Shown piece after piece: positions 1,635 to 21,932 of a DNA stretch of 46,504 nt (its first letter is position 1; every line of letters starts with the position of its first letter). The stretch covers positions 1 to 46,504 of the forward strand of contig JBKPCT010000072.1 of the NCBI GenBank assembly GCA_046727515.1. The letters are read 5' to 3'. The position numbers and the translations under genes are program-made. Origin of the DNA: Actinomycetota bacterium (GTDB taxonomy: Bacteria > Actinomycetota > Thermoleophilia > Gaiellales > Gaiellaceae). The notes under the pieces are model-generated. The model was given only the letters and a program-made list of their open reading frames with translations, did not search any database and was not told the origin of the DNA.

Positions 1635-2218
1635 TCGACGCTCCATTCCGCGTCGGTGCCCGGGAACGCCGGCGCGGCCTCGGGCGCGCCGCGCTTGTAG
1701 ACCATGAAGGTGCGCTTGAACTCGATCACGACCTCGCGCCGCTGGTTGATCCCGCGGCAGCGCATCGTCACGATGCCGACGCTCGGGTTCGAGCTCGACT
1801 CGCGCAGCTCGAGGATCTCGCTCTCGGCCCAGAGCGTGTCGCCCGCGAACACGGGCTTCGGCAGCTTGATGTCCGTCCACTGCAGGTTTGCGGCGGCGTT
1901 CTCGCTGGTATCCGGGACGGTCATGCCCGTGATCAGCGCGAGCGTGAACGTGCTGTTCACGAGCGGCTTGCCGAACTGGGTGCGCTCGGCGTACGGCGCG
2001 TTGAAGTGGATCTGGTTCGTGTTCAGGGTCAGGCACGTGAACCAGATGTTGTCCGCCGCGGTGATCGTCCGGCCGAGCCGGCTCCTGAAGACGTCGCCGA
2101 CCGCGAAGTCCTCGTAGAAGCGGCCCCGCCAGTCCTTCGGCGCGTGGCTCCGCTCGGGCGCCGGCGAAGCCGCCTCCGCTCCTGGGTCGCCTCCGTCCAG
2201 CCTGCGGCTCCTCGTCAT
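1631..2218 (-). CDS. MaoC-like (R)-specific enoyl-CoA hydratase/dehydratase, itaconyl-/mesaconyl-CoA hydratase type
   Basis: 195 aa. Segment GRFYEDFAVGDVFRSRLGRTITAADNIWFTCLTLNTNQIHFNAPYAERTQFGKPLVNSTFTLALITGMTV...GDTLWAESEILELRESSSNPSVGIVTM matches the hot-dog MaoC dehydratase pattern. ATGA overlap with the CitE-like stop. Confidence 0.9.
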   Translation of the reverse strand: MTRSRRLDGGDPGAEAASPAPERSHAPKDWRGRFYEDFAVGDVFRSRLGRTITAADNIWFTCLTLNTNQIHFNAPYAERTQFGKPLVNSTFTLALITGMTVPDTSENAAANLQWTDIKLPKPVFAGDTLWAESEILELRESSSNPSVGIVTMRCRGINQRREVVIEFKRTFMVYKRGAPEAAPAFPGTDAEWSVE

Positions 2219-6328: not shown

Positions 6329-8235
6329 GCGTCACCGAGTACCAGGTCGGCCGGCAGCCGGGCCCGCCGACGCGGAAACGCGTCGAGGTCGACCCGATCA
6401 CGCTGCGCGTGCTCGGCGGCGCGTTCCACGCGATCGCGAAGGAGATGGCGGGCGTGCTCTTTCGGATGAGCTATTCGTCGATCATCCGAGAGTCGGAGGA
6501 CCTCGGGGCGGGCATCTTCGACGCGCAGGGTCGCGAGCTCTGCGAGTCCGATTCGACGCCGATGCACATCGGCTCGCTGCCCTGGTACATCCGCGGCTTC
6601 CTCCAGCGGCTCGAGGGCCGGATCGAGGACGGCGACGTGATCGTCCACAACCACCCGTACCTGGGCGCCTCCCACTCGCCGGACGTCGCCGTCGCGGTGC
6701 CGATCTTCCACGAGGGGGAGCTGCTCGGCTTCGCCGCTGTCACGGCGCACGTGCTCGACGTAGGCGGCTCCTTCCCCGGGATCAACGCGGACGCGTTCGA
6801 CGTCTACGCCGAGGCGAAGATGTACAACGCGCTCCGGTGGTACGAGCGCGGCAAGCTGAACGTGGACCTCGACCGGATGATCTTCGACAACGTCCGGACC
6901 GAGACGATGAACCGCGGCGACATGAACGCGATGCTCGCTGCGTGCCAGCTCGGCCGCGAGCGCTTCCTCCGGCTGGCCCACCGCTACGGCGCCGAGGTCG
7001 TGATGAGCGCGGCGTACGACTGGATGGACTACTCCGAGCAGATGCTCCGAGCCGAGATCGCGAAGATCCCCGACGGGACCTACGGGCCCGTCGTCGGCTG
7101 GCTCGACGACGACGCGCGCAACCGCGACCGGCGGCTCCGCGTCGAGACGCGCGTGGTCGTCGAAGGCGATGAGATCACGATCGACCTGACGGGCTCGAAC
7201 CCGGAGGTGCCGACGGGCTACAACGTGCCCTTCGAAGGCTCGCTGCTGGTCAGCTGCTACTACGCCGTTCGCACGATGCTGCTCGACGAGGTCACCTTCC
7301 CCGAGCACGTGCCGCAGAACGACGGCGTGTTCCGGCCGGTGAAGGTGATCGCCCCGAAAGGGACGATCTTCAACCCGAACTTCCCGCGTGCGTGCTTCTC
7401 GCGCTTCTGCCAGACGCAGCGCGTGGTCGACAACGTCAACCTCGCGCTCGCGGAGGCGCTGCCGGAGAAGGTGACAGGGGGGAACTCGGCCGGGATCCAT
7501 TTCTGCGCGTACGCGGGCTTCGACGAGTCGCTCGGCGAGTACTGGCTCTACCTCGAGGTGAACGAGGGCTCGTACGGTGGCCGCTTCGGCAAGGACGCGA
7601 TGGACTCCGTCGACAACCTGATGGCCAACACGCGCAACAACCCGATCGAGGAGCTGGACATGCGCTTCCCGATGCGCTGCGACCAGTACGAGCTGCGCCC
7701 GGAGGCGGCGGCGCCCGGGAAGTGGCGCGGCGGGGTCGGGATCATTCGACGCAACCGCTTCCTCGTCGACGGGACGTACTCGTGCGAGGGCGACCGGCAG
7801 ACGGATCCGCCGAAGGGCGTTTTCGGCGGCTGGGACGGGCTCGTCGCGTCGTGCCGGAAGAACCCCGACACGCCGCGCGAGGAGTTGCTGCCCGCGAAGG
7901 TGACCGGGATCCCGTTCTCGGCCGGCGAGTTCATCGAGTTCCGCGAGCCGAACGCCGCGGGCTACGGCGACCCGCTGGAGCGTCCGGTGGAGGCGGTCCG
8001 CGAGGACGTGCTCGACGACTTCACGACGATCGAGCTCGCGCGCGACGCGTACGGGGTCGTCTTCGCGGACGAGCGGACGCTCGAGATCGACGAGGGGGCG
8101 ACGGAGGCGCTCCGCGGGCACCTGGGCACGAGTGGGAACGGCGGATCGTTGTCGGAATACTTCGCCCAGCGCGCCTTGCCGGCCGTGAGTCCGCCGACGT
8201 CGGTGGCCGGCAACCGCGAGCTGGGCATCGCGTAG
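6325..8235 (+). CDS. hyuB: hydantoinase B/oxoprolinase subunit (HyuB)
   Basis: ORF 6097..8235 trimmed to ATG 6325 (MSVTEYQVGR...DPITLRVLGGAFHAIAKEMAGVLFRMSYSSIIRESEDLGAGIFD), the canonical HyuB N-terminus. ATGA overlap with the hyuA stop. Confidence 0.92.
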   Translation: MSVTEYQVGRQPGPPTRKRVEVDPITLRVLGGAFHAIAKEMAGVLFRMSYSSIIRESEDLGAGIFDAQGRELCESDSTPMHIGSLPWYIRGFLQRLEGRIEDGDVIVHNHPYLGASHSPDVAVAVPIFHEGELLGFAAVTAHVLDVGGSFPGINADAFDVYAEAKMYNALRWYERGKLNVDLDRMIFDNVRTETMNRGDMNAMLAACQLGRERFLRLAHRYGAEVVMSAAYDWMDYSEQMLRAEIAKIPDGTYGPVVGWLDDDARNRDRRLRVETRVVVEGDEITIDLTGSNPEVPTGYNVPFEGSLLVSCYYAVRTMLLDEVTFPEHVPQNDGVFRPVKVIAPKGTIFNPNFPRACFSRFCQTQRVVDNVNLALAEALPEKVTGGNSAGIHFCAYAGFDESLGEYWLYLEVNEGSYGGRFGKDAMDSVDNLMANTRNNPIEELDMRFPMRCDQYELRPEAAAPGKWRGGVGIIRRNRFLVDGTYSCEGDRQTDPPKGVFGGWDGLVASCRKNPDTPREELLPAKVTGIPFSAGEFIEFREPNAAGYGDPLERPVEAVREDVLDDFTTIELARDAYGVVFADERTLEIDEGATEALRGHLGTSGNGGSLSEYFAQRALPAVSPPTSVAGNRELGIA

Positions 8236-9820: not shown

Positions 9821-10997
9821 CGTCCGCGTGCTCGCGATCGAGCAGTTCGGCGCCGGCCCGTGGGGAACGCTCCAGCTCGCCGACCTCGGCGCGGAGGTGA
9901 TCAAGATCGAGGACCCAGCCACCGGCGGCGATGTGGCGCGATACGTGCCGCCCTTCCAGGAGGGCGAGGCCTCGCTCTTTTTCGAAACCTTCAACCGCAA
10001 CAAGCGGAGCGTCTCGCTCGACCTCCGCCGCCCCGACACGCGCGGCGTCTTCGAGGATCTCGTGCGCGTCTCGGACGTCGTCTACTCGAACCTGCGGGGC
10101 GACCGGCCCGAGCGGCTCGGCCTCACGTATGAGCAGCTGCGGCACGTGAACGAGCGAATCGTCTGCTGCTCGCTCTCCGGCTTCGGCATGACCGGGCCGC
10201 GCGCCGGGGAGGGCGGCTACGACTACATGATGCAAGGCCGGGCCGGGTGGATGAGCCTGACGGGCGGCCCCGACGACCCGCCGACGAAGAGCGGTCTCTC
10301 GCTGGTCGACCTCTCCGGCGGCTACGTGTCGGCGATCGCCGTCCTCGCCGGGCTCTGGCGCGCGCGACGCGACGGGACGGGCTGCAACTGCGACATCTCG
10401 CTGCTCGACACCGCCCTCGCCGAGCTCGTCTACATCGGGACCTGGGCGGCCTCGCAAGGCTACGTGCCACCGCGCCGTGCGAATTCCGCGCACCCGGTGA
10501 TCGTCCCGTTCCAGAACTTCCCGACGGCGGACGGCTGGATCGTCGTCGCCTGCCCGAAGGAGAAGTTCTGGGAGCTGCTGTGCGAGGCGATCGGCCGGCC
10601 CCAGCTCGCGCAGGAGTACCCGAGCTTCGCGGAGCGGGACCGGCGCCGCGACGAGCTGGAACCGATCCTGGATGAGGCGTTCCGGGAGCGGACGAGCGAG
10701 GAGTGGCTCGCGGCGCTCGCCGGGGCCGGCGTGCCGTCGGCGCCCGTGAACGACGCCAGAGCGGCGCTGGAGCAGGCGCGCGTGGTCGAGTACGAGCACG
10801 CACAGCTCGGGAAGGTGCGGCAGGTCGCCTCGCCGCTTCGTCTCTCCGGAGCGGAGCCGCCGCTTCGGCCCGCGCCCGAGCGCGGCGCGGACACGGAGCA
10901 GTTGCTGGTCGAGCTGTGCGGCTACGAGCCTGCGCGCGTGCAGGAGCTTGCCGCGGCGGGAGTGTTCGGACAGGAGAAAGGAGCTGCAAATGGGTAG
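9804..10997 (+). CDS. CaiB/BaiF family III CoA-transferase
   Basis: 397 aa. LADVRVLAIEQFGAGPWGTLQLADLGAEVIKIEDP...NRNKRSVSLDL is the family III CoA-transferase N-terminal signature. 17-nt overlap with the LLM gene. Confidence 0.9.
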   Translation: MLPLADVRVLAIEQFGAGPWGTLQLADLGAEVIKIEDPATGGDVARYVPPFQEGEASLFFETFNRNKRSVSLDLRRPDTRGVFEDLVRVSDVVYSNLRGDRPERLGLTYEQLRHVNERIVCCSLSGFGMTGPRAGEGGYDYMMQGRAGWMSLTGGPDDPPTKSGLSLVDLSGGYVSAIAVLAGLWRARRDGTGCNCDISLLDTALAELVYIGTWAASQGYVPPRRANSAHPVIVPFQNFPTADGWIVVACPKEKFWELLCEAIGRPQLAQEYPSFAERDRRRDELEPILDEAFRERTSEEWLAALAGAGVPSAPVNDARAALEQARVVEYEHAQLGKVRQVASPLRLSGAEPPLRPAPERGADTEQLLVELCGYEPARVQELAAAGVFGQEKGAANG

Positions 10998-11370
10998 AGA
11001 TGCAATCCAACCGGAGGGGCTGACGACCCCGACGCCGCCCTACTCGCCGGTCGTGATCTCGGGCGATGCCGTCTACACGGCGGGGCAGATCGCCAACGAC
11101 GCGGACGGCAACCTCGTCGAGGGCGGGATCGAGGAGCAGACGCGCCAGGCGCTCGCGAACGTGCGCGCGTGCGTCGAGGCCGCCGGATGCACGATGGCCG
11201 ACGTCGTCAAGGTGAACGCGTACCTTGCGGACCTCAACGACTTCGCGGGGTACAACCAGGCCTACGTCGAGTTCTTCGACGCCCCGTACCCGGCGCGGAC
11301 CTCGGTGCAGGCCGGGCTCCCCGCGGATGTGCTCGTCGAGATCGAGGCGGTCGCGCGGCGAGCCCAGTGA
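10990..11370 (+). CDS. ridA: RidA/YjgF/L-PSP family reactive-intermediate deaminase
   Basis: ORF 10948..11370 trimmed to ATG 10990, preceded by GGAGAAAGGAG. PYSPVVISGDAVYTAGQIA...VKVNAYLADLNDFAGYNQAYVEFF...PARTSVQAGLPADVLVEIEAVA is the RidA pattern. Confidence 0.9.
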   Translation: MGRDAIQPEGLTTPTPPYSPVVISGDAVYTAGQIANDADGNLVEGGIEEQTRQALANVRACVEAAGCTMADVVKVNAYLADLNDFAGYNQAYVEFFDAPYPARTSVQAGLPADVLVEIEAVARRAQ

Positions 11371-11480
11371 GACGCCCTGTGTCAACAGGGCGTCTCACGC
11401 GGAAGGGGTGCCGGGGGAACCTTAGGTTCCCCCGTGCGCGGCGTCGCGGCTCCGCCGCGGCGCTGCGGGAGAAGCCGTGA
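11367..11480 (+). repeat. intercistronic three-hairpin repeat element, copy A (between ridA and puuE)
   Basis: Hairpin 1: TGAGACGCCCTG/CAGGGCGTCTCA (11368-11397). Hairpin 2: CGGGGGAACC-TTA-GGTTCCCCCG (11412-11434). Hairpin 3 is an imperfect GC hairpin (~11437-11467). The element ends with an SD-like GGGAGAAG plus GTG. It is bounded by GTGA (11367-11370) and GTGA (11477-11480). Confidence 0.8.
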
Positions 11481-12373
11481 GCGCGCGTGACCTCGTCGGC
11501 TACGGCGCCTCACCGCCGGACCCGCAGTGGCCCGGCGGTGCCCGCCTCGCCCTCAGCTTCGTCCTCAACTACGAGGAGGGCGGCGAGCGGACGCCGCTCG
11601 AGGGCGACCCGGAGGCGGAGTCGTTCCTGCACGAGGTCGTCGGCGCGCCGCCGACGGTGGGCCGCCGCAACCTGAACACCGAATCGATGTTCGAGTTCGG
11701 CAGCCGCGCCGGCTCCTGGCGCGTGCACCGGATCTTCACCTCACACGGTCTGCCGCTGACGGTCTACGCGGTCGGCCAGGCCCTCGAGCGGAACCCGGAA
11801 GCGGCAAAGGCGATGGTCGACGCCGGCTGGGAGGTGGCGAGCCACGGCTGGCGCTGGATCGACTACCTGGAGACGCCGGAGGACGAGGAGCGCGAGCACA
11901 TCCGCCTGGCGATCGAGGCGATCGAGCGGTTGTGCGGCCGGCGGCCCGTCGGCTGGTACACGGGCCGGATCTCCGCGAACACCCGGCGGCTCGTCGTCGA
12001 GCACGGCGACTTCCTCTACGACTCCGACTCATACGCCGACGAGCTCCCGTACTGGCTTGAGATCGACGGCCGGGAGCACCTCGTGATCCCGTACACGCTC
12101 GACGCCAACGACATGAAGTTCCTGAGCCCGAACGGCTTCGTCACGGCCGGCCAGTTCCTCGAGTACCTGGTCGACTCCTTCGAGCAGCTCTATGCGGACG
12201 GCGGACGGATGATGAACGTCGGCCTGCACTGCCGGATCGTCGGCCGTCCCGGCCGTGCCCCGGCGCTCGACCGCTTCCTCGCCCATGTGAAGCAGCGGCC
12301 GGACGTGTGGGTGACGACCCGCGCCGAGATCGCCCGCCACTGGCGCGAGCACCACCCGCCGCGTCCGAGCTGA
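11477..12373 (+). CDS. puuE: PuuE-type allantoinase (polysaccharide deacetylase fold, urate catabolism protein)
   Basis: 298 aa. RDLVGYGASPPDPQWPGGARLALSFVLNYEEGGER...SHGWRWIDY...VGWYTGRISANTRRLV...VIPYTLDANDMKF closely follows the PuuE pattern I recall. Confidence 0.85.
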   Translation: MSARDLVGYGASPPDPQWPGGARLALSFVLNYEEGGERTPLEGDPEAESFLHEVVGAPPTVGRRNLNTESMFEFGSRAGSWRVHRIFTSHGLPLTVYAVGQALERNPEAAKAMVDAGWEVASHGWRWIDYLETPEDEEREHIRLAIEAIERLCGRRPVGWYTGRISANTRRLVVEHGDFLYDSDSYADELPYWLEIDGREHLVIPYTLDANDMKFLSPNGFVTAGQFLEYLVDSFEQLYADGGRMMNVGLHCRIVGRPGRAPALDRFLAHVKQRPDVWVTTRAEIARHWREHHPPRPS

Positions 12374-12391
12374 TCGGGGGCTGCGCCGGCC

Positions 12392-13843
12392 TCAGCGGCG
12401 CGGCCGCGGCTTCACATGCAGGAACACCGAACGATCGACTCTGTTGCCGTGAATGTCGACTGCGCGGATGTTGACGCTGTAGTCCCTTGCGATCGCCTTC
12501 GCCAGCGGGACGCGGAACGAGATCCATCCGTCGTATCCGATCCTCGACAGGGGCTGCGCCGTCCGGACCACCCTGAGCCGCCGGTTCGGAGCCTGGCTGT
12601 AGAGCGTCACCGTGAGGCCGACCTTCGCGCCAGTTCCAGAGCGCGACCAGAGCTCGAGCGCCGCGAAGCGGACGAGCGGATACTGCGCGCCGAAGTCGAG
12701 CGTGATCTGCGGCTCGCGCCCGTCGTAGTCGGCTGCTCGCCTGGTGAACGTCGCGAGGGCGGGCTTCTTCGCGCCGTTGCGGCTGACGAGGCCGCTCTTC
12801 CACGCGCTCGTGGGGTCGTCGCGGAGGATGAACCAGATGAACATGTCCACGTTCGGGTCGCCCGCCGCGACGTCGAGCGCGTGCCGGAGATAGGCGGCCT
12901 GCTGCGCACTCGTCACTCCGCCTGCCCTGGCCGGCCTCGTCTGGTAGCCGTACTCGGTGATCCAGATCGGAACCGATTTCCGCTTGAACCACCCGGCGAG
13001 CCTGTCTTCGAACTTGGCCAGGTGCTTGAGCGTCACGTTTGGCCAGCGCACACGCTGGGTCGGCCTCTGCCTCAGGGTGGTCGGGTACGGGTGGTGCGAC
13101 CAGGCGTCGAACTTCAGCCTCGGCTTCTGCTTAGCGAGGAGCCTTGCGAAGTGGCCCGGCGACTCCGTCTCCTGCACGCCTTTCTCTCCGAGGTAGCGGT
13201 CGCGGCCGCGGGCGGACGTCTCGCCGATGCCGACCAGGGCATGCGGGCTGCCAGCCTTGATGCCGGCGTACGCGGCGCGGTAGATCCCCGCGTAGATCTT
13301 GGGCGCGATCGGCCGGCGCGTCCGCGGGTTGTACTGCGGGGAGAGGAACAGCCCGAGGTTCGACTCGTTCCAGACTGTGTAGTAGCGGACGAAGGGATAC
13401 CCCCGATGTCGGCCGGAGTAGCGGTTTGCGAGGGCGTGCGCGAACTTCCGCAGGTCTGCGAGCTTGGTCGGCGCGTGGTTCTGGCCCCTCCCGTGGTTGG
13501 CCCACTTCGGCGTGCCCCAGATCGTCAGCATCACCTCCATCCCATGGAGGCCGGCGTTGCGGACGAATTCGTCGAGGTCCGAGAACCGGTACGCCTTGTC
13601 GAACGGGTTGGCGGCGTTCCGCGGCTTCGTCTCTGCGATGCGCGACCAGTAGACGGTCGTGCGGACGATCCCGGCATGCGCCCGCTGCGCCAGGCGGAAC
13701 GCCCCGGCGCGGTCGGGGCGCCAGCGAAGGGTCGGGTCGTCCTGGAAGCCGACCAGCATCCTCGGCTTCGCGAAGGCCGAGGACGGCGAGAGAACCGCGG
13801 CGAGCACGATTGGGATCAGGGGAAAGAGGAGGCGAAAGCGCAT
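12392..13843 (-). CDS. secreted clan GH-A (cellulase/GH5-like TIM barrel) glycoside hydrolase with C-terminal beta-sandwich-like domain
   Basis: 483 aa. Signal peptide MRFRLLFPLIPIVLAAVLSPSSAFA. YYTVWNESN looks like the acid/base motif and PIWITEYGY the nucleophile motif. The exact GH family is not determinable by eye. Confidence 0.65.
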   Translation of the reverse strand: MRFRLLFPLIPIVLAAVLSPSSAFAKPRMLVGFQDDPTLRWRPDRAGAFRLAQRAHAGIVRTTVYWSRIAETKPRNAANPFDKAYRFSDLDEFVRNAGLHGMEVMLTIWGTPKWANHGRGQNHAPTKLADLRKFAHALANRYSGRHRGYPFVRYYTVWNESNLGLFLSPQYNPRTRRPIAPKIYAGIYRAAYAGIKAGSPHALVGIGETSARGRDRYLGEKGVQETESPGHFARLLAKQKPRLKFDAWSHHPYPTTLRQRPTQRVRWPNVTLKHLAKFEDRLAGWFKRKSVPIWITEYGYQTRPARAGGVTSAQQAAYLRHALDVAAGDPNVDMFIWFILRDDPTSAWKSGLVSRNGAKKPALATFTRRAADYDGREPQITLDFGAQYPLVRFAALELWSRSGTGAKVGLTVTLYSQAPNRRLRVVRTAQPLSRIGYDGWISFRVPLAKAIARDYSVNIRAVDIHGNRVDRSVFLHVKPRPRR

Positions 13844-13890
13844 TGAGTCGCTGGGCCGCCCGCAAGGTCGCGCGGCCCGCCGTGAGGCTC

Positions 13891-13901
13891 GTCGTCTGAC
13901 G
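13891..13901. promoter_or_regulatory. CGTCTGACG palindrome (GTCWGAC core) in the GH / DUF1348 divergent region
   Basis: TCGTCTGACGG at ~13891-13901. A second dyad, TGTCGGGACA, lies at 13951-13960 and overlaps TAGTGT (13948-13953) and ATG 13960. Confidence 0.35.
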
Positions 13902-13959
13902 GCGCGATTTTCCGGCGCGTCGAATTCTTAAACCTGCGGCCCTCGGCTAGTGTCGGGAC

Positions 13960-14378
13960 ATGCCCGAGGACGCCAGACCGCGTGTTCTCCGTTCAGCGAG
14001 GAGACGGCGCGGCAGAAGGTGCAGGCCGCCGAGGACGCGTGGAACCCGTGCGACCCCGAGCGGGCCGCAAAGGCGTACACCTCGACTCGCAGTTGCGGAA
14101 CCGCGACGAGTTCTTCCAGGGCCGCGAGGCGATCGTCGAGTTCCTCCGGCGGAAGTGGGCGCGCGAGCTCGACTACCGGCTGACGAAGGAGCTCTGGTGC
14201 TTCACCGACAACGGCATTTTCCGTCCGGTTCGAGTACGACTCACGCGATCCCGAGGGCCAGCGGTGGCGGAGTCACGGCAACGAGCGCTGGAGGTTCGAC
14301 AAGCGGGGGTACATGCGCGGCCGCGACGCGAGCATCAACGACTACCGGATCGAGGAGCACGAGCGGCGTATCCCGTAG
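13960..14378 (+). pseudogene. DUF1348 (NTF2-like) family gene disrupted by three single-base indels
   Basis: The conserved protein is readable only by joining three frames. These are [10 protein letters not shown] (frame of 13960), then [31 protein letters not shown], then [44 protein letters not shown], then [52 protein letters not shown]. Shifts lie at ~13989 (C-run), ~14082 (C-run) and ~14217-14220 (T-run). Confidence 0.75.
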
Positions 14379-14399
14379 ACTCGCCCGGAAGTCAGACAT
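14376..14399 (+). promoter_or_regulatory. TAGACT -10-like box followed by a GTCAGACAT motif upstream of the SnoaL-like gene
   Basis: TAGACT 14376-14381. AAGTCAGACAT 14389-14399. SD 14402-14410. GTG 14417. Confidence 0.45.
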
Positions 14400-14416
14400 C
14401 CAAGGAGGAGGGCACC

Positions 14417-14818
14417 GTGGGAACGCAGACGCAGCCGCTGACCCGCGACCGGCTCGCGGCCCTACCGGACAGCTACTTCAAGGCGGTTGACGCCAAGGAC
14501 GTCGATGCGATCCTCTCGCACTTCGCCGACGACGCGACCATCACCGTCCAGACCGATCACGCCGTGTTCTCGGGCGCCAACGAGATCCGCCGCATGTTCA
14601 CCGACTTCTGCGACCACTCCGTGTCGATCTTCCACGAGATCAAGAACATCGTCGTCGAGCCCGTCGCGGGCAAGGTCGCCACCGAGCAGAGCTACGTCGG
14701 CGAGCTCGTCGACGGGACGAAGAACGACATGCACAACTGCAACTTCTTCGACGTCGACGCGGACGGGAAGTTCACCCGCGTGATCATCTGGATGGCGGGG
14801 ACGAACCCGCTGACGTAA
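14417..14818 (+). CDS. SnoaL-like / NTF2-fold protein
   Basis: ORF 13982..14818 trimmed to GTG 14417, preceded by AAGGAGGAG (14402-14410). 133 aa; [23 protein letters not shown]...[16 protein letters not shown] is a SnoaL/NTF2-like pattern. Confidence 0.75.
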
Positions 14819-14827
14819 CGCCGTCGG

Positions 14828-15025
14828 TCAGCACTCGCTCGGCTCCGGCGAGAGCCGTGCGGGACGGAGGAAAGCCAGCAGCCGCCGGCCGCCCCGCGGC
14901 CGGTGTCCGGTTACGCCGGTCTCCGCGGGCGCTCGCTGCGCCCGCGCCTCGCGCTCGCCGTACAGGCCCATCCGGGCTTCGAGCTCCATCTGCCTCGTCT
15001 CGAACTGAACCACGCTCGGGTACAA
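14828..15025 (-). CDS. hypothetical small protein (65 aa)
   Basis: TTG start preceded by GAAGGAG at 7-nt spacing. GC3-rich codons. Lies downstream of the alpha/beta hydrolase on the same strand. No recognisable family. Confidence 0.3.
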   Translation of the reverse strand: MYPSVVQFETRQMELEARMGLYGEREARAQRAPAETGVTGHRPRGGRRLLAFLRPARLSPEPSEC

Positions 15026-15129
15026 GTTGTCGCTCCTTCGTCTCAGTCAGGGGAATCGGGTAGACGTGCCTTTCTACGGTAGAGGGCACACGCTCTCGCC
15101 GCATCGGCGGCCTCGCCGAATCGAACTGC

Positions 15130-15975
15130 CTAAGCCGCGGCAGTGGAGGCCGCGGCGAGGGCGCGCTCGAAGAACTCGCCGACGATCCGCACCGCGTCCT
15201 GCGGGCACTCGACGAGGTCGGCGTGTCCGATGTCCGAGAACTCGACGAGCTCGATGTGCTCGCTCAGCTCCGCCATGCGCCGGGCGCCCAGCCCGCTCGG
15301 GGCGAGGTCTGGAGGGCAGAGGATGTCGTGCGTCCCGTTCGTCATCAGCAACGGCCGCTCGATCTCCGGGACGAGCGGCGAGAGGTCCATGTTCTCCATC
15401 GCCAGGCACGCCTGCCGAACGGTGAACGGATCGTTGAGCGCGACGATGTCGCGGACGAGCGGGAAGATGTCCGCGCCCTCGGGGCTCTCCATGAACATCG
15501 CGCCCACCGCCTGCGTCGTCACGTGGTCGGAGAACTCGTCCCACGGCATCGCTTCCGCCATTCGCCGCCAGACCCGGAACAGGGTCCGCCGGTAGAGGTC
15601 CGGCTTCGCGAAGGCGACGTCGGCGCAGGCGGCGATCGTCTTCTCCGGGTAAGACGCCGTGAAGGCGATCGCGATCATCCCGCCCATCGACGTTCCGTGG
15701 ACCAGAGCCTGCTCCAGCCCGACGGCGTCGAGGAGCGCCGCAGCGTCCGCCGCCCAGCCCTCGATCGTGTACGCCTCGCGCGGGTGGTCGGAGGCGCCGT
15801 AGCCGCGGGCGTCGAAGGAGAGCAGCCGGTACTTCTCTCGGAAGCCGTCGTTGACGAGCCCGAAGTTGTGGCGGCCGAAGAGCCCGCCGCCGAGCTGCAC
15901 GATCACCGGCACATCCTCCGGGCCTCTCAGCTCGTAGTAGAGCCGAACGCCGTCCTCGATCTGCGCGTAGGGCAC
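15130..15975 (-). CDS. alpha/beta-fold hydrolase
   Basis: 281 aa. Nucleophile elbow HGTSMGG, RLLSFDARGYGASD, and a C-terminal His region SDIGHAD. GTG start 1 nt after the FmdB stop. Confidence 0.88.
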   Translation of the reverse strand: MPYAQIEDGVRLYYELRGPEDVPVIVQLGGGLFGRHNFGLVNDGFREKYRLLSFDARGYGASDHPREAYTIEGWAADAAALLDAVGLEQALVHGTSMGGMIAIAFTASYPEKTIAACADVAFAKPDLYRRTLFRVWRRMAEAMPWDEFSDHVTTQAVGAMFMESPEGADIFPLVRDIVALNDPFTVRQACLAMENMDLSPLVPEIERPLLMTNGTHDILCPPDLAPSGLGARRMAELSEHIELVEFSDIGHADLVECPQDAVRIVGEFFERALAAASTAAA

Positions 15976-15976
15976 C

Positions 15977-16168
15977 CTAGTCCCAGCTCCTGCCGACCCG
16001 GTCCCAGGCGACGTCGCTGGGGAGCCACTCGGTGAAGATCGTCGACCAGAGGCGCTCGACGGACTTCGCGCCGCACCTCGGGCACGGCGGGGTCGGCTTC
16101 GTGGAGGTTGAGAGATACTCCTCGAACCGCTCCTCGCATTTCTTGCACCGGTACTCGTAGATCGGCAT
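15977..16168 (-). CDS. FmdB-family zinc-ribbon putative regulatory protein
   Basis: 63 aa. MPIYEYRCKKCEERFE...PPCPRCGAKS is the CxxC...CxxC FmdB/TIGR02605-type N-terminus. Confidence 0.85.
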   Translation of the reverse strand: MPIYEYRCKKCEERFEEYLSTSTKPTPPCPRCGAKSVERLWSTIFTEWLPSDVAWDRVGRSWD

Positions 16169-16331
16169 GGGCTCGGAGTCTAACCTCGTCTCGGCGCTGC
16201 GGGAACTCGCCCGGCAGCAGGGCGTCGAGCCGACTGAAGAGGACCTCGAGGGTGTGCTCGGCTTTCTCGAGCGGATTCTCCCGGAGCTCGCGGAACTCGA
16301 GGCGCTGCTGCCGCGGGACGCCCCGCTGTGA
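16167..16331 (+). CDS. GatC/AtzG-like small subunit candidate (54 aa), coupled to the amidase
   Basis: Absent from the ORF track (<60 aa). Manual translation gives MGSESNLVSALRELARQQGVEPTEEDLEGVLGFLERILPELAELEALLPRDAPL*. Codons are GC3-rich and the protein is helical and acidic like GatC. Its TGA (16329-16331) overlaps the amidase GTG 16328 (GTGA). Confidence 0.55.
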   Translation: MGSESNLVSALRELARQQGVEPTEEDLEGVLGFLERILPELAELEALLPRDAPL

Positions 16332-17635
16332 GCGTCGCGCGTCTTGCGGAACGCCTCCGCGCCGGTCAGCTGTCAGCCCGGGAGGCGGTCGAGTGGTACC
16401 TCGCGAGAATCGAGGAGCATCACGACCTGAACGCGTACATCACGGTGCTTGCGGACGAGGCGCTGGCGGAGGCCGACGCCGGCCCACCCGACGGCCCGCT
16501 CCGGGGCGTGCCGCTGGCCGTCAAGGACGTGATCGACGTGGCCGGGGTGCGCACGACCGCGGCCTCCGAGATCCTGCGCGACCACGTCGCCGAGCGCGAT
16601 GCCGTCGTCGTCGAGCGCCTACGCGCAGCGGGAGCGATCGTGCTCGGAAAGCTCAACCTCCACGAGTTCGCCTACGGCGCGCTGAGCACGAGCCCGCACT
16701 TCGGGCCGGTCAGGAACCCGTGGGCGCGGGAGCGCGTCGCGGGCGGGTCGAGCGGCGGGAGCGGGGCGGCCGCTGGAGCCGAGCTTGCGGCGGGGACGCT
16801 CGGCACCGACACCTCGGGCTCGATCAGGATCCCGGCCGCGTTCTGTGGCGTCACCGGCCACCGCCCGACGACGGGCCTCGTCCCGAACGTGGGCGTCGTG
16901 CCGGTCGCCTGGAGCTTCGACACCGTCGGCCCGATCGCGCGCAGTGCCGAGGACTGCGCTGTCCTCCTGCAGGCGATCGCGCCGGACCTTGCAGCTCCCA
17001 CGGCCGGCGTCCCACGTATCGGGCTCGTCACGTCGCTCGTCGAGCAGGCCGACTCGGACGTGGCGGCAGCGGCGGAGAGGGCCGCGCGCGAGCTCGGCGC
17101 CGAGCCCGTCGACACGCCCGTTCTCCGTCACGCCGGTGTGATCCAGCAGCTGATGATGCTGCCCGAGGCTGCGGCCGCGCACCTGCCGTGGCTGCAGACG
17201 CGGCTCGCGGACTACGGAGCCGACGTCCGGGCGCGCCTCCTCGCGGGGTTGCTGCTGCCGGCAACGGCGTACCCGACAGGGCTCCGCGCGCGCCGCTGGC
17301 TCGAGGGCGCGATGCGTCCGCTGTTCGAGCGCTTCGACGTGCTCGCGGCACCGACGATGCCGATCGTTCCTCCGCTGATCGGCGAGGACCCGGTCGAGCT
17401 CCGCGGCGAGCAGGTCCCCTACCGGCTGACGCTGATCCCGTTCAACTCGCCCTGGAGCCTGCTCGGCCTCCCGGTGACGAGCGTCCCCTGCGGCTTCGTC
17501 GACGGGCTCCCCGTCGGGCTCTCGTTCGCCGGGCGCCGCGGCGAGGACGCCGTGGTGCTCGGAGCGGCGCGGGCCTTCCAGCACGCGACGGACTGGCACG
17601 AACGGCGCCCGGCCGGAGTCTCTGAGCAAATTTGA
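16328..17635 (+). CDS. amidase-signature (AS) family amidase (GatA/AtzE-like)
   Basis: 435 aa. GVPLAVKDVIDVAGVRTTAAS...GGSSGGSGAAAGAELAAGTLGTDTSGSIRIPAAFCG is the AS Ser-cisSer-Lys signature. Confidence 0.92.
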   Translation: MSVARLAERLRAGQLSAREAVEWYLARIEEHHDLNAYITVLADEALAEADAGPPDGPLRGVPLAVKDVIDVAGVRTTAASEILRDHVAERDAVVVERLRAAGAIVLGKLNLHEFAYGALSTSPHFGPVRNPWARERVAGGSSGGSGAAAGAELAAGTLGTDTSGSIRIPAAFCGVTGHRPTTGLVPNVGVVPVAWSFDTVGPIARSAEDCAVLLQAIAPDLAAPTAGVPRIGLVTSLVEQADSDVAAAAERAARELGAEPVDTPVLRHAGVIQQLMMLPEAAAAHLPWLQTRLADYGADVRARLLAGLLLPATAYPTGLRARRWLEGAMRPLFERFDVLAAPTMPIVPPLIGEDPVELRGEQVPYRLTLIPFNSPWSLLGLPVTSVPCGFVDGLPVGLSFAGRRGEDAVVLGAARAFQHATDWHERRPAGVSEQI

Positions 17636-17651
17636 TGCCGGAGCGGGTAGG

Positions 17652-17661
17652 TTGTATACAA
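17652..17661. promoter_or_regulatory. perfect 10-bp palindrome TTGTATACAA (FadR/GntR-type operator candidate overlapping a TATACA -10-like box)
   Basis: Located in the 58-nt gap between the amidase and the hydantoinase. It fits the t-n-GT-nn-AC-n-a pattern. TTTGAT (17631-17636) lies 18 nt upstream of TATACA. Confidence 0.45.
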
Positions 17662-17693
17662 ACGCCCGTACCTCCGACGAGAGGGGTTCACCC

Positions 17694-19109
17694 ATGTCCG
17701 TTCTGATCAAGGGTGGGCGGATCGTGACGGCCGCCGACGACTACATCGGCGACGTCTACGTCGACAACGGCACGATCAGCCTGATCGGCGAGTCGCTCGA
17801 CCAGCCCGCCGACAAGGTGATCGACGCGGCCGGCAAGTACGTCATCCCAGGTGGGATCGATCCGCACACGCACATCGAGATGTTCTTCGGCGGCACGACC
17901 ACCTGCGACGACTTCACGTCCGGGACCGTCTCTGCCGCGTTCGGTGGGACGACGACGCTGATCGACTTCTGCATGCAGACGCCGGGAACGTCGTTCGCGC
18001 AGGCGCTCGAGAACTACCACGAGAAGGTCGACCGCTGCAAACCGGTGATCGACGTCGGCTTCCACATCGGCGTCACCGACCTCCGCGAGGGCGGGACACT
18101 CGAGGACCTGGCGAAGCTCCCGGACGAGGGCGTCACCTCTTACAAGCTGTTCATGGCCTACAAGGGCGCCGTCATGGTCGACGACGAGACGCTCTTCAGG
18201 ACGATGGAGACGGCGGCCGAGACCGGCGCGCTCGTGATGGTGCACGCCGAGAACGGCGATGCGATCGACGTCATCGTCAAGGAGGCGGTCGCAGAGGGGA
18301 AGAAGGAACCGATCTGGCACGCGCGAACGCGTCCGATGGAGACGGAGGCCGAGGCGACGAACCGCGCCGCGCAGCTCGCACGCGTTGCCGGCTGCCCGCT
18401 GTACGTCGTCCACGTATCGTGCCGGCCGGCGGTCGAGCCGATCGCGCTCGCGCGTGAGAAGGGCTGGAACGTCTGGGGCGAGACTTGCACCCAGTACCTC
18501 TTCATCGACGAGACGGCGCTCGCCGAGCCCGGCTTCGAGGGCGCGAAGTACATCTACACCCCGCCCCCGCGGCCGAAGGAGCAGCAGGAGCATCTCTGGA
18601 AGGCTCTTCAGGCGGACGTGCTCTCGGTCGTCTCGACGGACCACTGTCCGTTCAAGTGGCCCGAGCAGAAGGCGATCAACGGCGAGGCGTTCCAGGTCGT
18701 GCCGAACGGCGGGCCGGGGATCGAGAACCGGCTGCACATGCTGCACGAGTTCGGCGTGCGCACCGGGCGGATCACGCTCAACCGCTTCGTCGAGCTCACC
18801 TCGACCAACGTCGCGAAGCTCTTCGGCCTCTACCCGCGGAAAGGGACGATCGCGGTCGGGAGCGACGCGGACATCGTCGTCTGGGATCCCGAGAAGGCGC
18901 TGACCATCTCCGCCGACTCGCACCACTCGAACGTCGACTACAACCTCTTCGAGGGGACGAAGGTCACCGGTGCGCCGCAGGTCGTGATGGTGCGCGGCCA
19001 AGTGATCGTCGACCACGACGAGCTCGTCGGCGCGCCCGGTGACGGCCACTTCGTCAAGCGGGCGCGGTTCGGCGAGCGGCTGCCCGCAGCGGAGAAGGTG
19101 ACAGTATGA
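17694..19109 (+). CDS. D-hydantoinase / dihydropyrimidinase (cyclic amidohydrolase)
   Basis: ORF trimmed to ATG 17694 (MSVLIKGGRIV...), with GAGAGGGG upstream. PGGIDPHTHIEM metal-binding motif, SYKLFMAYKG (carboxylated-Lys region), MVHAENGD, VVSTDHCPF. Confidence 0.92.
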   Translation: MSVLIKGGRIVTAADDYIGDVYVDNGTISLIGESLDQPADKVIDAAGKYVIPGGIDPHTHIEMFFGGTTTCDDFTSGTVSAAFGGTTTLIDFCMQTPGTSFAQALENYHEKVDRCKPVIDVGFHIGVTDLREGGTLEDLAKLPDEGVTSYKLFMAYKGAVMVDDETLFRTMETAAETGALVMVHAENGDAIDVIVKEAVAEGKKEPIWHARTRPMETEAEATNRAAQLARVAGCPLYVVHVSCRPAVEPIALAREKGWNVWGETCTQYLFIDETALAEPGFEGAKYIYTPPPRPKEQQEHLWKALQADVLSVVSTDHCPFKWPEQKAINGEAFQVVPNGGPGIENRLHMLHEFGVRTGRITLNRFVELTSTNVAKLFGLYPRKGTIAVGSDADIVVWDPEKALTISADSHHSNVDYNLFEGTKVTGAPQVVMVRGQVIVDHDELVGAPGDGHFVKRARFGERLPAAEKVTV

Positions 19110-19273
19110 CCGTCGCTCGCCTACGGCTGACTCCTCCTCGCAGGCTGGGGGAAACCAGGTTTCCCCCACGAGCCCCCTTCTTTCAGAAGCTGAGTTCACA
19201 GGGGAACCTCCCGGTTGTTCCCCTCGGACCCCTCCCCGCTCATCGGACGGAGACCGTCCGATGAGCGGGGAGG
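19110..19273 (+). promoter_or_regulatory. highly structured intercistronic spacer (three hairpins; the last sequesters the start codon)
   Basis: Hairpins: GGGGGAAACC/GGTTTCCCCC (19147-19167), AGGGGAAC/GTTCCCCT (19200-19224), and a perfect 20-bp stem CCTCCCCGCTCATCGGACGG-AGA-CCGTCCGATGAGCGGGGAGG (19231-19273). The last contains ATG 19261 and GGAGG 19269-19273. The spacer is bounded by ATGA (19106-19109) and ATGA (19261-19264). Confidence 0.7.
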
Positions 19274-19914
19274 AAGCACGCGAGGTGTATGCGAAGGCCC
19301 GGCTCGGAGAGAGCGTGACGCTCGGCTCCCGGCCGGCGGTCCTCGTCGTCGACTTCAGCTGCGGCTTCACCGACCCCGAATGCACGCTCGGGTCGGACAT
19401 GACAGATGCCGTCGAGGCGACGAGGCGGGTGCTCGACGCCGCCCGGGAGAGGGGGCTGCCGGTCGTCTTCACGACGATCGGCTACGAGCCGAGCCTGAAG
19501 GACGGCGGCCTCTGGCTCCAGAAGATTCCGAGCCTCGGCGACCTCCAGATCGGCGGTCGCTGGGTCGAGATCGACCCACGGCTCGATCCGCGCGACGACG
19601 AGACGATCGTGCTGAAGAAGGGTGCGTCCGCGTTCTTCGGGACGAATCTCGTCTCCATCCTGGTCACCCAGGGTGTCGACTCCGTCGTGCTGTGCGGGGC
19701 GACGACGAGCGGTTGCATCCGGGCGACCGCGATCGACCTGCTGCAGTACGGCTACCCGACGATCGTGGCCCGCGAGTGCGTCGCCGACCGGGCGCAGGCG
19801 CCGCACGAGGCGAACCTGTTCGACATCGACGCGAAATACGCCGACGTCGTCTCCGTCGATGACGCGCTGGAGTACCTCGAGAGCGTGCCGGGGAAGGTCG
19901 GCGTGGGCCTGTGA
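19261..19914 (+). CDS. isochorismatase-like cysteine hydrolase (N-carbamoylsarcosine amidase / NicF / BiuH-type)
   Basis: 217 aa. D-K-C triad context: AVLVVDF, IVLKKGASAFFGT, LCGATTSGCIRATA. An alternative start is GTG 19285, 8 nt after GGGGAGGAAG. Confidence 0.88.
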   Translation: MSGEEAREVYAKARLGESVTLGSRPAVLVVDFSCGFTDPECTLGSDMTDAVEATRRVLDAARERGLPVVFTTIGYEPSLKDGGLWLQKIPSLGDLQIGGRWVEIDPRLDPRDDETIVLKKGASAFFGTNLVSILVTQGVDSVVLCGATTSGCIRATAIDLLQYGYPTIVARECVADRAQAPHEANLFDIDAKYADVVSVDDALEYLESVPGKVGVGL

Positions 19915-20021
19915 GACGCCCTGTCTCAGGGCGTCTCGCGCGGAGGGGGTGGCGGGGGAACCTTGGGTTCCCCCGTGCTCAGCGGCGCGGCTCTGCCGCG
20001 GCGCTGCGAGAGGATCCGTGA
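19911..20021 (+). repeat. intercistronic three-hairpin repeat element, copy B (between isochorismatase-like and TtuC-like genes)
   Basis: Alignable by eye to copy A over its whole length. GAGACGCCCTG-TCT-CAGGGCGTCTC (19913-19937). CGGGGGAACC-TTG-GGTTCCCCCG (19953-19975). CAGCGGCGCGG...CCGCGGCGCTG, then GAGAGGATCC plus GTG. Bounded by GTGA (19911-19914) and GTGA (20018-20021). Confidence 0.8.
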
Positions 20022-21079
20022 CGTACCGGGTCGCCCTGCTCCCCGGCGACGGGGTCGGCCCGGAGGTGATCGCGGAAGCCCGAAGGGCCCTCGAGGCGCT
20101 CGGACTCCCGCTCGAGTGGACGGAGCTGCCGTGGGGCTCCGCCTACTGGCAGGAGCACGGCCGGATGATGCCCCCGGACGCGCTCGATACCCTCCGCGCA
20201 CACGACGCGGTGCTGATGGGCGCCGTCGGCGATCCGTCGGTACCGGACCACGTCTCGCTGTGGGGCCTCATTCTCGAGCTCCGGCAGCGCCTCGACCTCT
20301 GGGCGAACATCCGCCCGGCCAGGCTGCTCGAGGGCATCCCCTGCCCGCTCGCCGGGCGCGGGCCGGCGGACGTGGACATGCTGTTCGTCCGCGAGAACAC
20401 CGAGGGCGAGTACGCGGGCGTCGGCGGGCGCGCCCACACGGGCCTGGCTTCGGAGGTCGGTCTCGAGACGAGCGTGTTCACGCGCTCGGGAGTCGAGCGG
20501 GTCGTCCGGCACGCGTTCGGGCTCGCGCGGGCGCGGCGCGGCCTCGTCACCAGCGCGACCAAGTCGAACGCCTCGCGGTACGGCTACGTCCTCTGGGACG
20601 AGGTCGCGGAGGAGGTCGCGGCCGCATTCCCGGACGTCCGCTACGAGCGCGTGCTCGTCGACGCGCTTGCCGCGCGGATGGTGCGCGACCCCGCGAGCCT
20701 CGACGTCGTCGTCGGCTCGAACCTCTTCGCCGACATCCTCACCGACCTCGCCGCGGCGATCCAGGGCGGGATGGGGATGGCGGCGAGCGCGAACGTCGCG
20801 CCGGGATCCGACGCTCCGGGGCTGTTCGAGCCGGTGCACGGGTCCGCGCCCGACATCGCCGGCCGCGGAATCGCCAACCCCGCCGGCGCGATCTGGAGCG
20901 CCGTGCTGATGCTCGAGCACCTCGGTGAGGCCGAGGCCGCCGGAGCGCTGATGCGCGCGCTCGAGGACGTCTGCCGCGACGGGCCGAGGACGCGCGACGT
21001 CGGCGGCGAAGCGACCGCGCGCGAGGTCGGGGAGGCGATTGCGGCTCGGGTAGAGGCGTTCAGCGCACGACACCGATGA
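20018..21079 (+). CDS. tartrate dehydrogenase/decarboxylase / 3-isopropylmalate dehydrogenase family (TtuC-like)
   Basis: ORF 19622..21079 trimmed to GTG 20018 (VTYRVALLPGDGVGPEV...). Motifs: MLFVRENTEGEYAG, NLFADILTDLAAAIQGGMGMAASAN, FEPVHGSAPDIAG. Confidence 0.88.
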   Translation: MTYRVALLPGDGVGPEVIAEARRALEALGLPLEWTELPWGSAYWQEHGRMMPPDALDTLRAHDAVLMGAVGDPSVPDHVSLWGLILELRQRLDLWANIRPARLLEGIPCPLAGRGPADVDMLFVRENTEGEYAGVGGRAHTGLASEVGLETSVFTRSGVERVVRHAFGLARARRGLVTSATKSNASRYGYVLWDEVAEEVAAAFPDVRYERVLVDALAARMVRDPASLDVVVGSNLFADILTDLAAAIQGGMGMAASANVAPGSDAPGLFEPVHGSAPDIAGRGIANPAGAIWSAVLMLEHLGEAEAAGALMRALEDVCRDGPRTRDVGGEATAREVGEAIAARVEAFSARHR

Positions 21080-21932
21080 GGGCGCCGCCGGCAACGATCA
21101 GGACGCCGGCGGCGACGAGCCGCATCCCGATCCCTTCCCCGTGGCGGCCGATGAGCAGGAGGGAGAAGACCACCGCCCAGAGCGACTGCGTCGCATTCAA
21201 CGGGGCGACGATCGACACCCGGCCCCTGTCGAACGCCTCCAGCAGACTGTCGTAGGAGAGCCGTAGGAGCACGCCCGCAGCCGCAAATGCGGGCACTGCG
21301 GCACGGAGGTGCCGGCGCGGCGCCTCGCTCTGCGCCACGAGCGTGTACGCGAAGACGACCGCGAAGGCGCCGAGCAGCGCGAGCGCCGAGGCGACGAGCG
21401 GCGGCGGATGCGCGTCGCGGGCGGCCCACCGGGCGACGTTGTCGCGAACGGCAAAGAGTCCAGCGCAGGCGAGCGCGAAGAAGGCGCCGAGGGCGCGGAA
21501 ATGCTCGGGCCGCGACCGCTCCCGGGCCAGGGCGACTCCGCCTGCGACGACGAGTCCGGTCCCGAGCACCAGCAGCGGCTGGAACGGCTCGCCGAGGACC
21601 GCAAGCGCGATTGCCACGGACATCAGCGGCGCGGTGCCGATCAGGATCGACGTCCGCGAGGGACCGACGTCGCGGACCGCGAAGATGAAGAGGATCTGGG
21701 TCGCGCCCGGCACCAGCGCGCCGATCAGCAGGAAGGGCCACAGGTCGGCCGGCCGGACGTCGTCGACGACGATCGACGGGATCGCGACCAGGGCAGCCAC
21801 CACGAATCCGAGGCCGGCAATGACGACGGCGCCCACCTCCGGCTCGCCTCCGCGCTGCAGGCCGCGGCGGACGAGGACGGCGAGCAGGCCGAACAGGACA
21901 CCCGCGACGGCTGCGAAGACGACCGAGGCCAA
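21060..21932 (-). CDS. DMT superfamily (EamA-like) transporter
   Basis: 290 aa with about 10 hydrophobic segments in two EamA-like halves. TTG start. The 3' end overlaps the TtuC-like gene by 20 nt (convergent). Confidence 0.85.
   Translation of the reverse strand: MASVVFAAVAGVLFGLLAVLVRRGLQRGGEPEVGAVVIAGLGFVVAALVAIPSIVVDDVRPADLWPFLLIGALVPGATQILFIFAVRDVGPSRTSILIGTAPLMSVAIALAVLGEPFQPLLVLGTGLVVAGGVALARERSRPEHFRALGAFFALACAGLFAVRDNVARWAARDAHPPPLVASALALLGAFAVVFAYTLVAQSEAPRRHLRAAVPAFAAAGVLLRLSYDSLLEAFDRGRVSIVAPLNATQSLWAVVFSLLLIGRHGEGIGMRLVAAGVLIVAGGALIGVVR

Follow-up and report, generated by a model that had tools for sequence, protein, structure and literature searches.

A three-hairpin insertion at stop/start overlaps in Gaiellaceae operons, probably kept as a MIRU-like translated bridge

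Two gene junctions on a Gaiellaceae contig (JBKPCT010000072.1, assembly GCA_046727515.1; Actinomycetota, Thermoleophilia) carry copies of the same short sequence, which folds into three consecutive hairpins. Positions 1-46,504 of the contig, hereafter called the window, were analysed. Since relatives have empty sites at these junctions and a related contig, L244, carries a third copy, the three-hairpin element is an insertion that is polymorphic between lineages. We consider it likely that it is a small non-autonomous insertion element which enters operons at NTGA stop/start overlaps (N, any base) and is kept there as a translated bridge, in the manner of the MIRUs (mycobacterial interspersed repetitive units). 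The identity of the repeats, their hairpins, the empty and filled sites, the open frame and the pattern of variation are direct observations. The copies and their parts are as follows.

Copy A, 11367-11480, plus strand: three-hairpin element, 114 nt including both GTGA, 135.6 bits with model R1.
Copy A hairpin 1, 11367-11398, plus strand: 14 bp, loop GTCA.
Copy A spacer and hairpin 2, 11399-11434, plus strand: purine-rich GCGGAAGGGGTGC, then CGGGGGAACC TTA GGTTCCCCCG.
Copy A hairpin 3, 11440-11464, plus strand: 11 bp, with G.U pairs.
Copy A tail, 11465-11480, plus strand: GCGGGAGAAGCC with the Shine-Dalgarno-like GGGAG, then the right GTGA.
Copy A mini-frame, GTG at 11367 to TGA at 11478-11480, plus strand: 37 codons.
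Copy B, 19911-20021, plus strand: three-hairpin element, 111 nt, 119.4 bits with model R1.
Copy B hairpins, 19911-19939, 19953-19975 and 19981-20005, plus strand.
Copy C, L244:5623-5736: three-hairpin element, 114 nt, at the isochorismatase/Iso_dh junction.

Copies A and B align from end to end, as a preliminary description of this DNA had claimed, with 12 substitutions over 111 shared positions (89.2% identity). The two small indels that it reported reduce to a single one of 3 nt, located in the loop of hairpin 1. Copy C is 91% identical to A and 87% identical to B. Hairpin 1 (GTGAGACGCCCTG(T)/(A)CAGGGCGTCTC(A/G)C) has 14 bp in A and 13 bp in B, and its 5' arm includes the left GTGA, which in copy A holds both the ridA stop and the start of the mini-frame. 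Hairpin 2 (CGGGGGAACC/GGTTCCCCCG) has 10 bp, and hairpin 3 is imperfect with 11 bp. Folding of the sense-strand RNA gave -84.2 kcal/mol for A and -75.4 kcal/mol for B (z = -7.9 and -4.9 against dinucleotide shuffles), in agreement with the three consecutive hairpins first described, and the chance expectation of the hairpin-1 and hairpin-2 patterns in the window was 0.00 each. A Shine-Dalgarno-like purine tract supplied by the element, also noticed at the outset, lies 3-5 nt upstream of the downstream GTG (GGGAGAAG, GAGAGGA or GGGAAAA). The similarity between copies had been described as stopping at a GTGA on each side. On the right it ends exactly there; on the left it ends at the GTGA or up to 3-4 nt before it, every filled site having CCA or CCT ahead of this GTGA. 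The flanks of A and B are unrelated and no similarity extends into the flanking coding sequence; a segmental duplication was rejected on this ground. All three filled sites hold one unit each and no tandem array.

Copy A lies between a ridA-like gene and puuE (site A), and copy B between an isochorismatase-family gene and an Iso_dh gene (site B).

ridA-like gene (L-PSP), 10990-11370, plus strand: 5' of copy A, TGA stop in the left GTGA.
PuuE-type allantoinase gene (Polysacc_deac_1), 11477-12373, plus strand: 3' of copy A, GTG start in the right GTGA.
Isochorismatase-family gene, 19261-19914, plus strand: 5' of copy B, TGA stop in the left GTGA.
Iso_dh / tartrate dehydrogenase-like gene, 20018-21079, plus strand: 3' of copy B, GTG start in the right GTGA.

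The domain matches (L-PSP, Polysacc_deac_1, isochorismatase and Iso_dh) support the original assignment of the junctions as ridA/puuE and isochorismatase/TtuC-like, and the start of puuE was set by alignment with relatives whose site is empty. The window has a G+C content of 70.4%, and the closest proteins (84-98%) come from soil metagenomes and from proteins of metagenome-assembled genomes (MAGs) labelled Gaiellaceae. Single NTGA overlaps also join other gene pairs of the window, with minus-strand cases at 264, 1631 and 2215 and the remainder at 4211, 6325, 8939 and 16328; the overlaps at 264, 4211, 8939 and 16328 had already been pointed out as routine.

Sites A and B were compared with contigs that encode the closest PuuE and Iso_dh homologues and whose flanking genes are 85-98% identical. 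Site A is empty, with a single NTGA overlap, in five contigs (L119, L120, L245, L246 and P0003). Site B is empty in seven (L241, L242, L243, L245, L246, L247 and P0126), with a single GTGA or TTGA in the six L contigs; P0003 at site A and P0126 at site B were scored as empty from gene coordinates. At site A, L119 reads CAGGTC ATGA GCGAGC and L120 reads GGCGAGC GTGA GCGGCC, where the window reads GGCGAGCCCA GTGA, the element, then GTGA GCGCGC. BLAST synteny of the window with L119 and L120 is interrupted exactly at the element. Site B is filled in L244 (copy C), and GTGA flanks copies A, B and C on both sides. The proposal that the element landed in a 4-nt stop/start overlap, and the idea that orthologous junctions in relatives might preserve the empty overlap, are both borne out by these alleles.

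The filled state does not track kinship. The nearest relative of the window, L241 (97.7% nucleotide identity in Iso_dh), is empty, and so is L245, the nearest relative of L244 (93-96%). This scatter fits three histories, namely independent insertions at one junction, precise losses, and allele exchange by recombination. Identity between the window and L241 is 92.8% in the isochorismatase gene and 97.7% in the adjacent Iso_dh gene, a jump which suggests that recombination had a breakpoint at site B or close to it.

Copies A, B and C are each open in a frame that starts at the GTG in the left GTGA and ends with the TGA in the right one; 37, 36 and 37 codons, respectively, come before the stop. 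Because the element is itself an open frame and its only indel is of 3 nt, the chain of stop/start overlaps is kept. The overlap appears to have been duplicated, not destroyed, leading from the upstream gene into the mini-frame and from the mini-frame into the downstream gene, and the flanking genes are probably still coupled, since stop/start overlaps exist at both ends of the element. The preliminary description had regarded them as uncoupled; the open GTG...TGA frames of all three copies speak against that view.

Comparison of the window with L241 brought to light a second insertion, at the junction upstream of the same isochorismatase gene.

Second hairpin element, 19106-19264, plus strand: ATGA...ATGA, 52-codon bridging frame.
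Amidohydrolase gene, 17652-19109, plus strand: TGA stop within the left ATGA of the second element.

This 19106-type element contains GGGGGAAACC/GGTTTCCCCC, then CCCCCTTCTT, and two further hairpins. Positions 19135-19192 are a copy of an abundant Gaiellales hairpin repeat that is described below, and the isochorismatase start codon falls within the last hairpin (19237-19267). Eight relatives lack the element and have a 4-nt GTGA overlap at the amidohydrolase/isochorismatase junction, as seen from the sequence itself in six of them and from gene coordinates in L247 and P0126. A profile of the 19106-type element found only two other full-length copies, one in L052 between transporter-like and TetR-like genes and one in L099 between TldD-like and PmbA-like genes, these gene names coming from reading the translations and not from database matches. 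The window, L052 and L099 copies lie at three different operon junctions, each with NTGA...NTGA of the same first base and a bridging frame. The second element looks unrelated to the three-hairpin element and has the same design. Across both element types the spacings are 110, 107, 110, 155, 137 and 176 nt, and every one of them equals 2 mod 3. The combined chance estimate for the three insertions in the window, which were found without searching for frames, is ~0.004, taking 1/3 for the frame of each and 0.55, 0.60 and 0.35 for openness.

The last hairpin of the 19106-type element is unrelated in sequence from copy to copy, and the right NTGA always lies inside it (19237-19267; L052 ~5318-5351; L099 minus strand ~1583-1612). 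Its opposite arm co-varies with the NTGA (TCAT with ATGA, TCAC with GTGA), and in the window copy the stem reaches into the downstream gene (ATGAGC/GCTCAT).

Variation among copies A, B and C of the three-hairpin element falls mainly outside the stems: 5 of 70 columns vary within stems and 13 of 44 elsewhere (Fisher p = 0.003). Each of the five transitions in stems leaves the sense strand paired, by way of a G.U pair or by compensation (at pair 74:98 the copies have GU, AU and GC), and the same transitions would yield A.C mismatches on the antisense strand. This hints, from three sequences only, that the structure of the sense RNA matters. By codon position the variable columns number 5, 5 and 8, non-synonymous codon differences among the copies equal or outnumber synonymous ones, and G+C at third codon positions (GC3) is 0.70-0.76 in the mini-frames versus 0.85-0.95 in window genes. 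Since the variation avoids stems and shows no codon-position bias, constraint appears to act on the stems and on the openness of the frame, not on peptide content.

The least probable explanation that we weighed is that the frame is a real gene for a 36-37-residue arginine-rich peptide, translationally coupled into both operons. An intact frame in all three copies and start/stop overlaps typical of coupled genes would suit such a gene, but the lack of a third-position excess, the surplus of non-synonymous changes or their parity with synonymous ones, the GC3 well below that of window genes and the palindromes that dictate the sequence all argue for a different constraint, and most relatives lack the frame. 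The peptides of A and B had no match at E up to 10 among 5.8 billion proteins, and an exhaustive peptide search of 1.84 billion representatives gave no homologue; a 795-aa repetitive protein, the lone match in the latter search, was judged spurious and rejected, as its score sums seven repeats. Codon 2 of the mini-frame is AGA in all copies (11370-11372, 19914-19916 and L244:5626-5628), and each copy has one to three AGG codons as well. AGA and AGG are arginine codons that are usually rare at 70% G+C; in the mini-frames they are present because the hairpin sequences dictate them.

The same pattern of variation bears on a selected cis-acting RNA structure, that is, a processing site or a barrier to 3'-exonucleases which differentiates gene levels, whose usefulness would preserve the repeat, and in which the open frame is incidental. 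In malE-malF, hairpins of repetitive extragenic palindromic (REP) sequences set differing upstream and downstream levels. For the Gaiellaceae element, the very stable sense-strand folds, the conservation of stems against variable loops and spacers, and stem transitions that only sense-strand RNA would tolerate all favour such a role. However, the element is dispensable, given that these operons lack it in most close relatives, and no Rfam family corresponds to it. A cis-acting structure would also leave unexplained both the 3-nt indel that keeps the frame and the 2 mod 3 spacing at every junction of two element types. We regard it as unlikely to be the primary explanation, and it is compatible with a translated bridge as a secondary effect.

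The hairpins also connect the element to a larger repeat family. A scan for hairpin 2, with one genome per species, returned at least 118 loci, nearly all of them in Gaiellales, Gaiellaceae or Thermoleophilia MAGs. What it returned was an abundant two-hairpin repeat, and no further three-hairpin copies were among the matches listed. The consensus of this repeat is CGtGGGGGAACCCATGGTTCCCCCaCGaGCCCCCTCCTTc, ~25 nt and a second GC hairpin (GGCCGGCnnAGCCGGCC-like); in parts, it is CGTGGGGGAACCCATGGTTCCCCCACG plus AGCCCCCTCCTTC, ~25 nt and a GGCCGGC..GCCGGCC hairpin, and it is sometimes in tandem.

Abundant Gaiellales repeat, example loci: L020:3152; L093:7265; L067:7296 and 7419; window 19135-19192.

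The three-hairpin element and the abundant repeat share only the GGAGGGGG-N5-hairpin-2 module, in inverted orientation. Of 108 copies of the abundant repeat, 46 have a coding frame that ends 1-38 nt ahead of the GGGGG run (1-9 nt ahead in 42), and the stops (23 TAG, 12 TAA and 11 TGA) look rich in TAG and TAA for genomes of ~70% G+C. AGCCCCCTCCTTC resembles the anti-Shine-Dalgarno sequence, or AAGGAGGGGG on the other strand. In L014, at ~1600-1760 (minus strand 6308-6406), an abundant hairpin copy lies between the GAPDH and PGK genes. It has diverged direct copies of ~55 nt from the GAPDH 3' end at its flanks, and the last 15-17 codons (NEWGFSCRMVDLVQRLL*) are thereby present twice; this duplication hints at a different or additional insertion mechanism.

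Strong G+C-rich hairpins directly after a stop codon, together with a related repeat that usually abuts stop codons, would suit an intrinsic transcription terminator or attenuator inside the operons. We find this very unlikely. No T-run follows any hairpin, a terminator scan was empty at both elements, and the downstream genes begin 0 nt after the element in operons that are contiguous in relatives; an intrinsic terminator was rejected for the missing T-run.

Database searches returned little else. A metagenome scan for hairpin 1 (AGACGCCCTG-N(2-10)-CAGGGCGTCT) matched at least 120 unrelated contigs (L121-L240) of 38-73% G+C, and none of the contigs listed carried the rest of the element. Hairpin 1 on its own is a generic palindrome and non-diagnostic, since it recurs in so many contigs without the remainder. 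Rfam at its gathering score found only tRNAs in the window and 15 related loci, gave only noise at E up to 10 around copy A, and had no match to the abundant Gaiellales repeat either. Searching a viral collection with two patterns, and plasmids and phages with BLAST, returned nothing, and a literature search found no paper on Gaiellales repeats. With no match in Rfam or among plasmids, phages and proteins, the sequence family appears to be undescribed.

Our preferred reading, a small insertion element retained as a translated bridge, can be put as a sequence of steps. The element would be a composite of palindromic repeat modules that litter Gaiellales genomes. It would insert into operons exactly at NTGA overlaps, leaving the tetranucleotide on both sides, and the surviving copies would be those inserts that stay open between the left GTG and the right TGA. 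On reaching the UGA of the upstream gene, a ribosome would already have melted the 5' arm of hairpin 1, which holds the GUG. It would restart on this overlapping GUG, translate through the three hairpins, stop at the UGA that overlaps the downstream GUG, and restart there with the aid of the purine tract of the element (GGGAG, GAGAGG or GGGAA). Through such a relay the insertion would cost the operon little. In the 19106-type element the downstream start would be buried by the last hairpin, so that downstream translation would depend on the ribosome reading the bridge. Coupling by termination and reinitiation is itself established (review PMC12548453). Translation of the mini-frame, coupling of the flanking genes and the mode of movement are what we infer from the DNA, and a secondary effect on mRNA stability is possible.

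Several observations weigh against this reading. An open frame of 37 codons is not rare at 70% G+C (probability 0.55-0.60), and translation of the mini-frame, whose start codon is enclosed by a 14-bp stem, could simply fail. Three copies are known; in 0.79 Mb of DNA from other Gaiellales genomes, model R1 found none, with nothing above 41 bits versus 119-139 bits for true copies. A Pfam scan found no transposase, including RAYT/TnpA, among the 28 open reading frames (ORFs) of the window. Terminal inverted repeats were not found in the element, the inverted repeats common to A, B and C being the three internal hairpins only. The element at the 19106 site stands between two ATGA in the window, where every relative read shows GTGA, and at site A an additional codon (CAG) comes ahead of the left GTGA. 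The preliminary description had compared the repeated overlap to a target-site duplication. The tetranucleotide does stand on both sides, with an identical first base in 6/6 copies of the two element types, and a clean 4-nt duplication fits most of the data, yet it is not proven, owing to the extra CAG and a left boundary that is ambiguous by 3-4 nt. These irregularities are not decisive, because empty alleles, too, differ from one another in their C-terminal codons and in the base that opens the tetranucleotide.

Some of these observations would also suit a history without mobility, in which the copies came about by local duplication, by gene conversion between junctions or by templated palindrome formation at NTGA, and homologous recombination of alleles together with slippage deletions produced their presence and absence. 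Just three copies are known, from one gene neighbourhood in closely related genomes, and the identity jump between the window and L241 across site B (92.8% to 97.7%), the missing terminal inverted repeats and the missing transposase among window ORFs are all consistent with it. The same holds for the constant presence of the junction tetranucleotide in one terminal hairpin, which at 19237-19267 takes in bases of the downstream gene as well. However, sites A and B have no flank similarity that could drive conversion, the 19106-type element occupies three unrelated operon junctions in three genomes, and the hairpin-2 module is dispersed over >100 genomes. We consider a non-mobile origin improbable.

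Among known systems, the MIRUs offer the closest layout to compare. According to PMC3184786, MIRUs are intercistronic repeats of 40-100 bp that contain G+C-rich inverted repeats; their filled sites are marked by tetranucleotide direct repeats, and relatives have empty sites. Their internal ORF is described as overlapping the adjacent genes with its ends (PMC3184786; PMC12548453, citing Supply et al. 1997). The Gaiellaceae element is likewise a short repeat (111-114 nt) inside an operon, between co-directional genes that are contiguous in relatives. It has an internal ORF in the direction of the genes that overlaps the stop and start of its neighbours (-4 spacing), tetranucleotide direct repeats with empty sites (here with the 3-4-nt ambiguity of the left boundary), G+C-rich internal inverted repeats and an actinobacterial host. 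In contrast to MIRUs, the host class is Thermoleophilia, and the units are single where MIRUs often form tandem arrays. At 111-114 nt the units also exceed MIRUs slightly in length, and three long hairpins dominate them, one of which holds the junction tetranucleotide itself. A repeat of MIRU type would be expected in tens of dispersed copies per genome; the counts here are two in the 46.5-kb window, one in L244 and none in 0.79 Mb of other Gaiellales DNA. The middle module is, moreover, shared with a much larger order-wide repeat family. We class the element as an undescribed sequence family of MIRU design, the likeness drawn here being one of described layout. The initial statement that no described family has this sequence or this junction specificity stands for the sequence, which has no database match; it does not stand for the junction specificity, given the MIRU layout in the relevant passages of PMC3184786 and PMC12548453.

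Other families share fewer of these features. Like REP sequences and BIMEs, the element is a mosaic of short G+C-rich palindromes in intergenic DNA whose copies differ mainly in the loops, with a possible role in mRNA stability; its hairpin-2 module alone has many extragenic copies (at least 118 contigs), usually just after stops. Most REPs have a conserved GTAG/CGTC head tetranucleotide (PMC3733652). This head is not present in any of the three hairpins, which have GTGA (hairpin 1), CGGG or CGTG (hairpin 2) and GGCG (hairpin 3). A RAYT gene was not found among the 28 window ORFs, and the element lies within a predicted translated frame between coupled genes and not in an untranslated spacer. 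Miniature inverted-repeat transposable elements (MITEs) such as Correia/NEMIS, RUP and Nezha resemble it in being non-autonomous, ~100 nt long and able to form stable RNA stem-loops, with sites that carry short direct repeats when filled and are empty in relatives, and some MITEs fuse open frames to neighbouring genes (PMC3184786). The Gaiellaceae element differs in having no terminal inverted repeats, on which ground a classical MITE was rejected, and no partner insertion sequence is known for it. Elements of the IS200/IS605 type have hairpins by both ends and no terminal inverted repeats, insert beside a fixed tetranucleotide and do not duplicate their target. The Gaiellaceae element shares the hairpins at its ends, the lack of terminal inverted repeats and the fixed tetranucleotide, and also has an internal TCAC/TCAT, but TnpA was not found among the 28 window ORFs; we treat this resemblance as a lead only. 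The Neisseria REP2 element brings a ribosome-binding site together with an ATG and acts at the 5' ends of genes, and Rickettsia palindromic elements (RPE) are tolerated inside coding sequences by staying in frame (PMC3184786). Unlike the Gaiellaceae element, neither bridges two coupled genes.

The complement of the junction tetranucleotide (TCAC/TCAT) is found within the element. More tentatively, the three-hairpin and 19106-type elements may represent a Gaiellales class of hairpin elements, with at least two unrelated-looking families, that homes to NTGA overlaps. Pairing of the tetranucleotide with an internal arm (TCAC/TCAT) would guide insertion, so that the terminal hairpin swallows the junction. 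Such elements would insert in either orientation, hit one and the same junction repeatedly in separate lineages, and persist only as translated bridges. We hold this broader idea to be rather doubtful at present.

Some further features of the neighbourhood were noted. A 483-aa glycosyl-hydrolase-like gene with a weak Cellulase/GH5 match lies just after puuE on the minus strand (12392-13843); it is missing in L120, L245 and L246, where other genes directly follow puuE. Between the Iso_dh gene and an aconitase-family gene, the minus strand carries a gene for 290 aa (21060-21932), whose counterpart in L247 is annotated EamA. The Iso_dh and aconitase-family genes overlap by 4 nt in L242, L244 and L245; L241 and L247 are arranged like the window. 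A second isochorismatase gene (35512-36210) is ~74-75% identical in stretches to that at 19261-19914, and the similarity of the two genes accounts for the direct repeats D10 and D18 of the window. At 31564-31830, a 69-nt unit occurs in three direct copies that are 68-84% identical, with spacings of 120 and 78 nt (D3).

If the translated-bridge reading is correct, an uncultured actinobacterial order that stands deeply apart has either evolved or retained the MIRU design, in which a selfish repeat survives inside an operon by carrying a frame that relays ribosomes from gene to gene, and at least two element types there share a MIRU-like design. For annotation, gaps of 100-160 nt within operons of these soil genomes may be recent insertions and not spacers with a regulatory role. 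Near-identical lineages that differ in having the empty or the filled allele form a natural experiment on how a structured insert with a relay ORF affects the expression of coupled genes. Should the homing class also prove real, it would be a mobile element whose niche is translational coupling itself.

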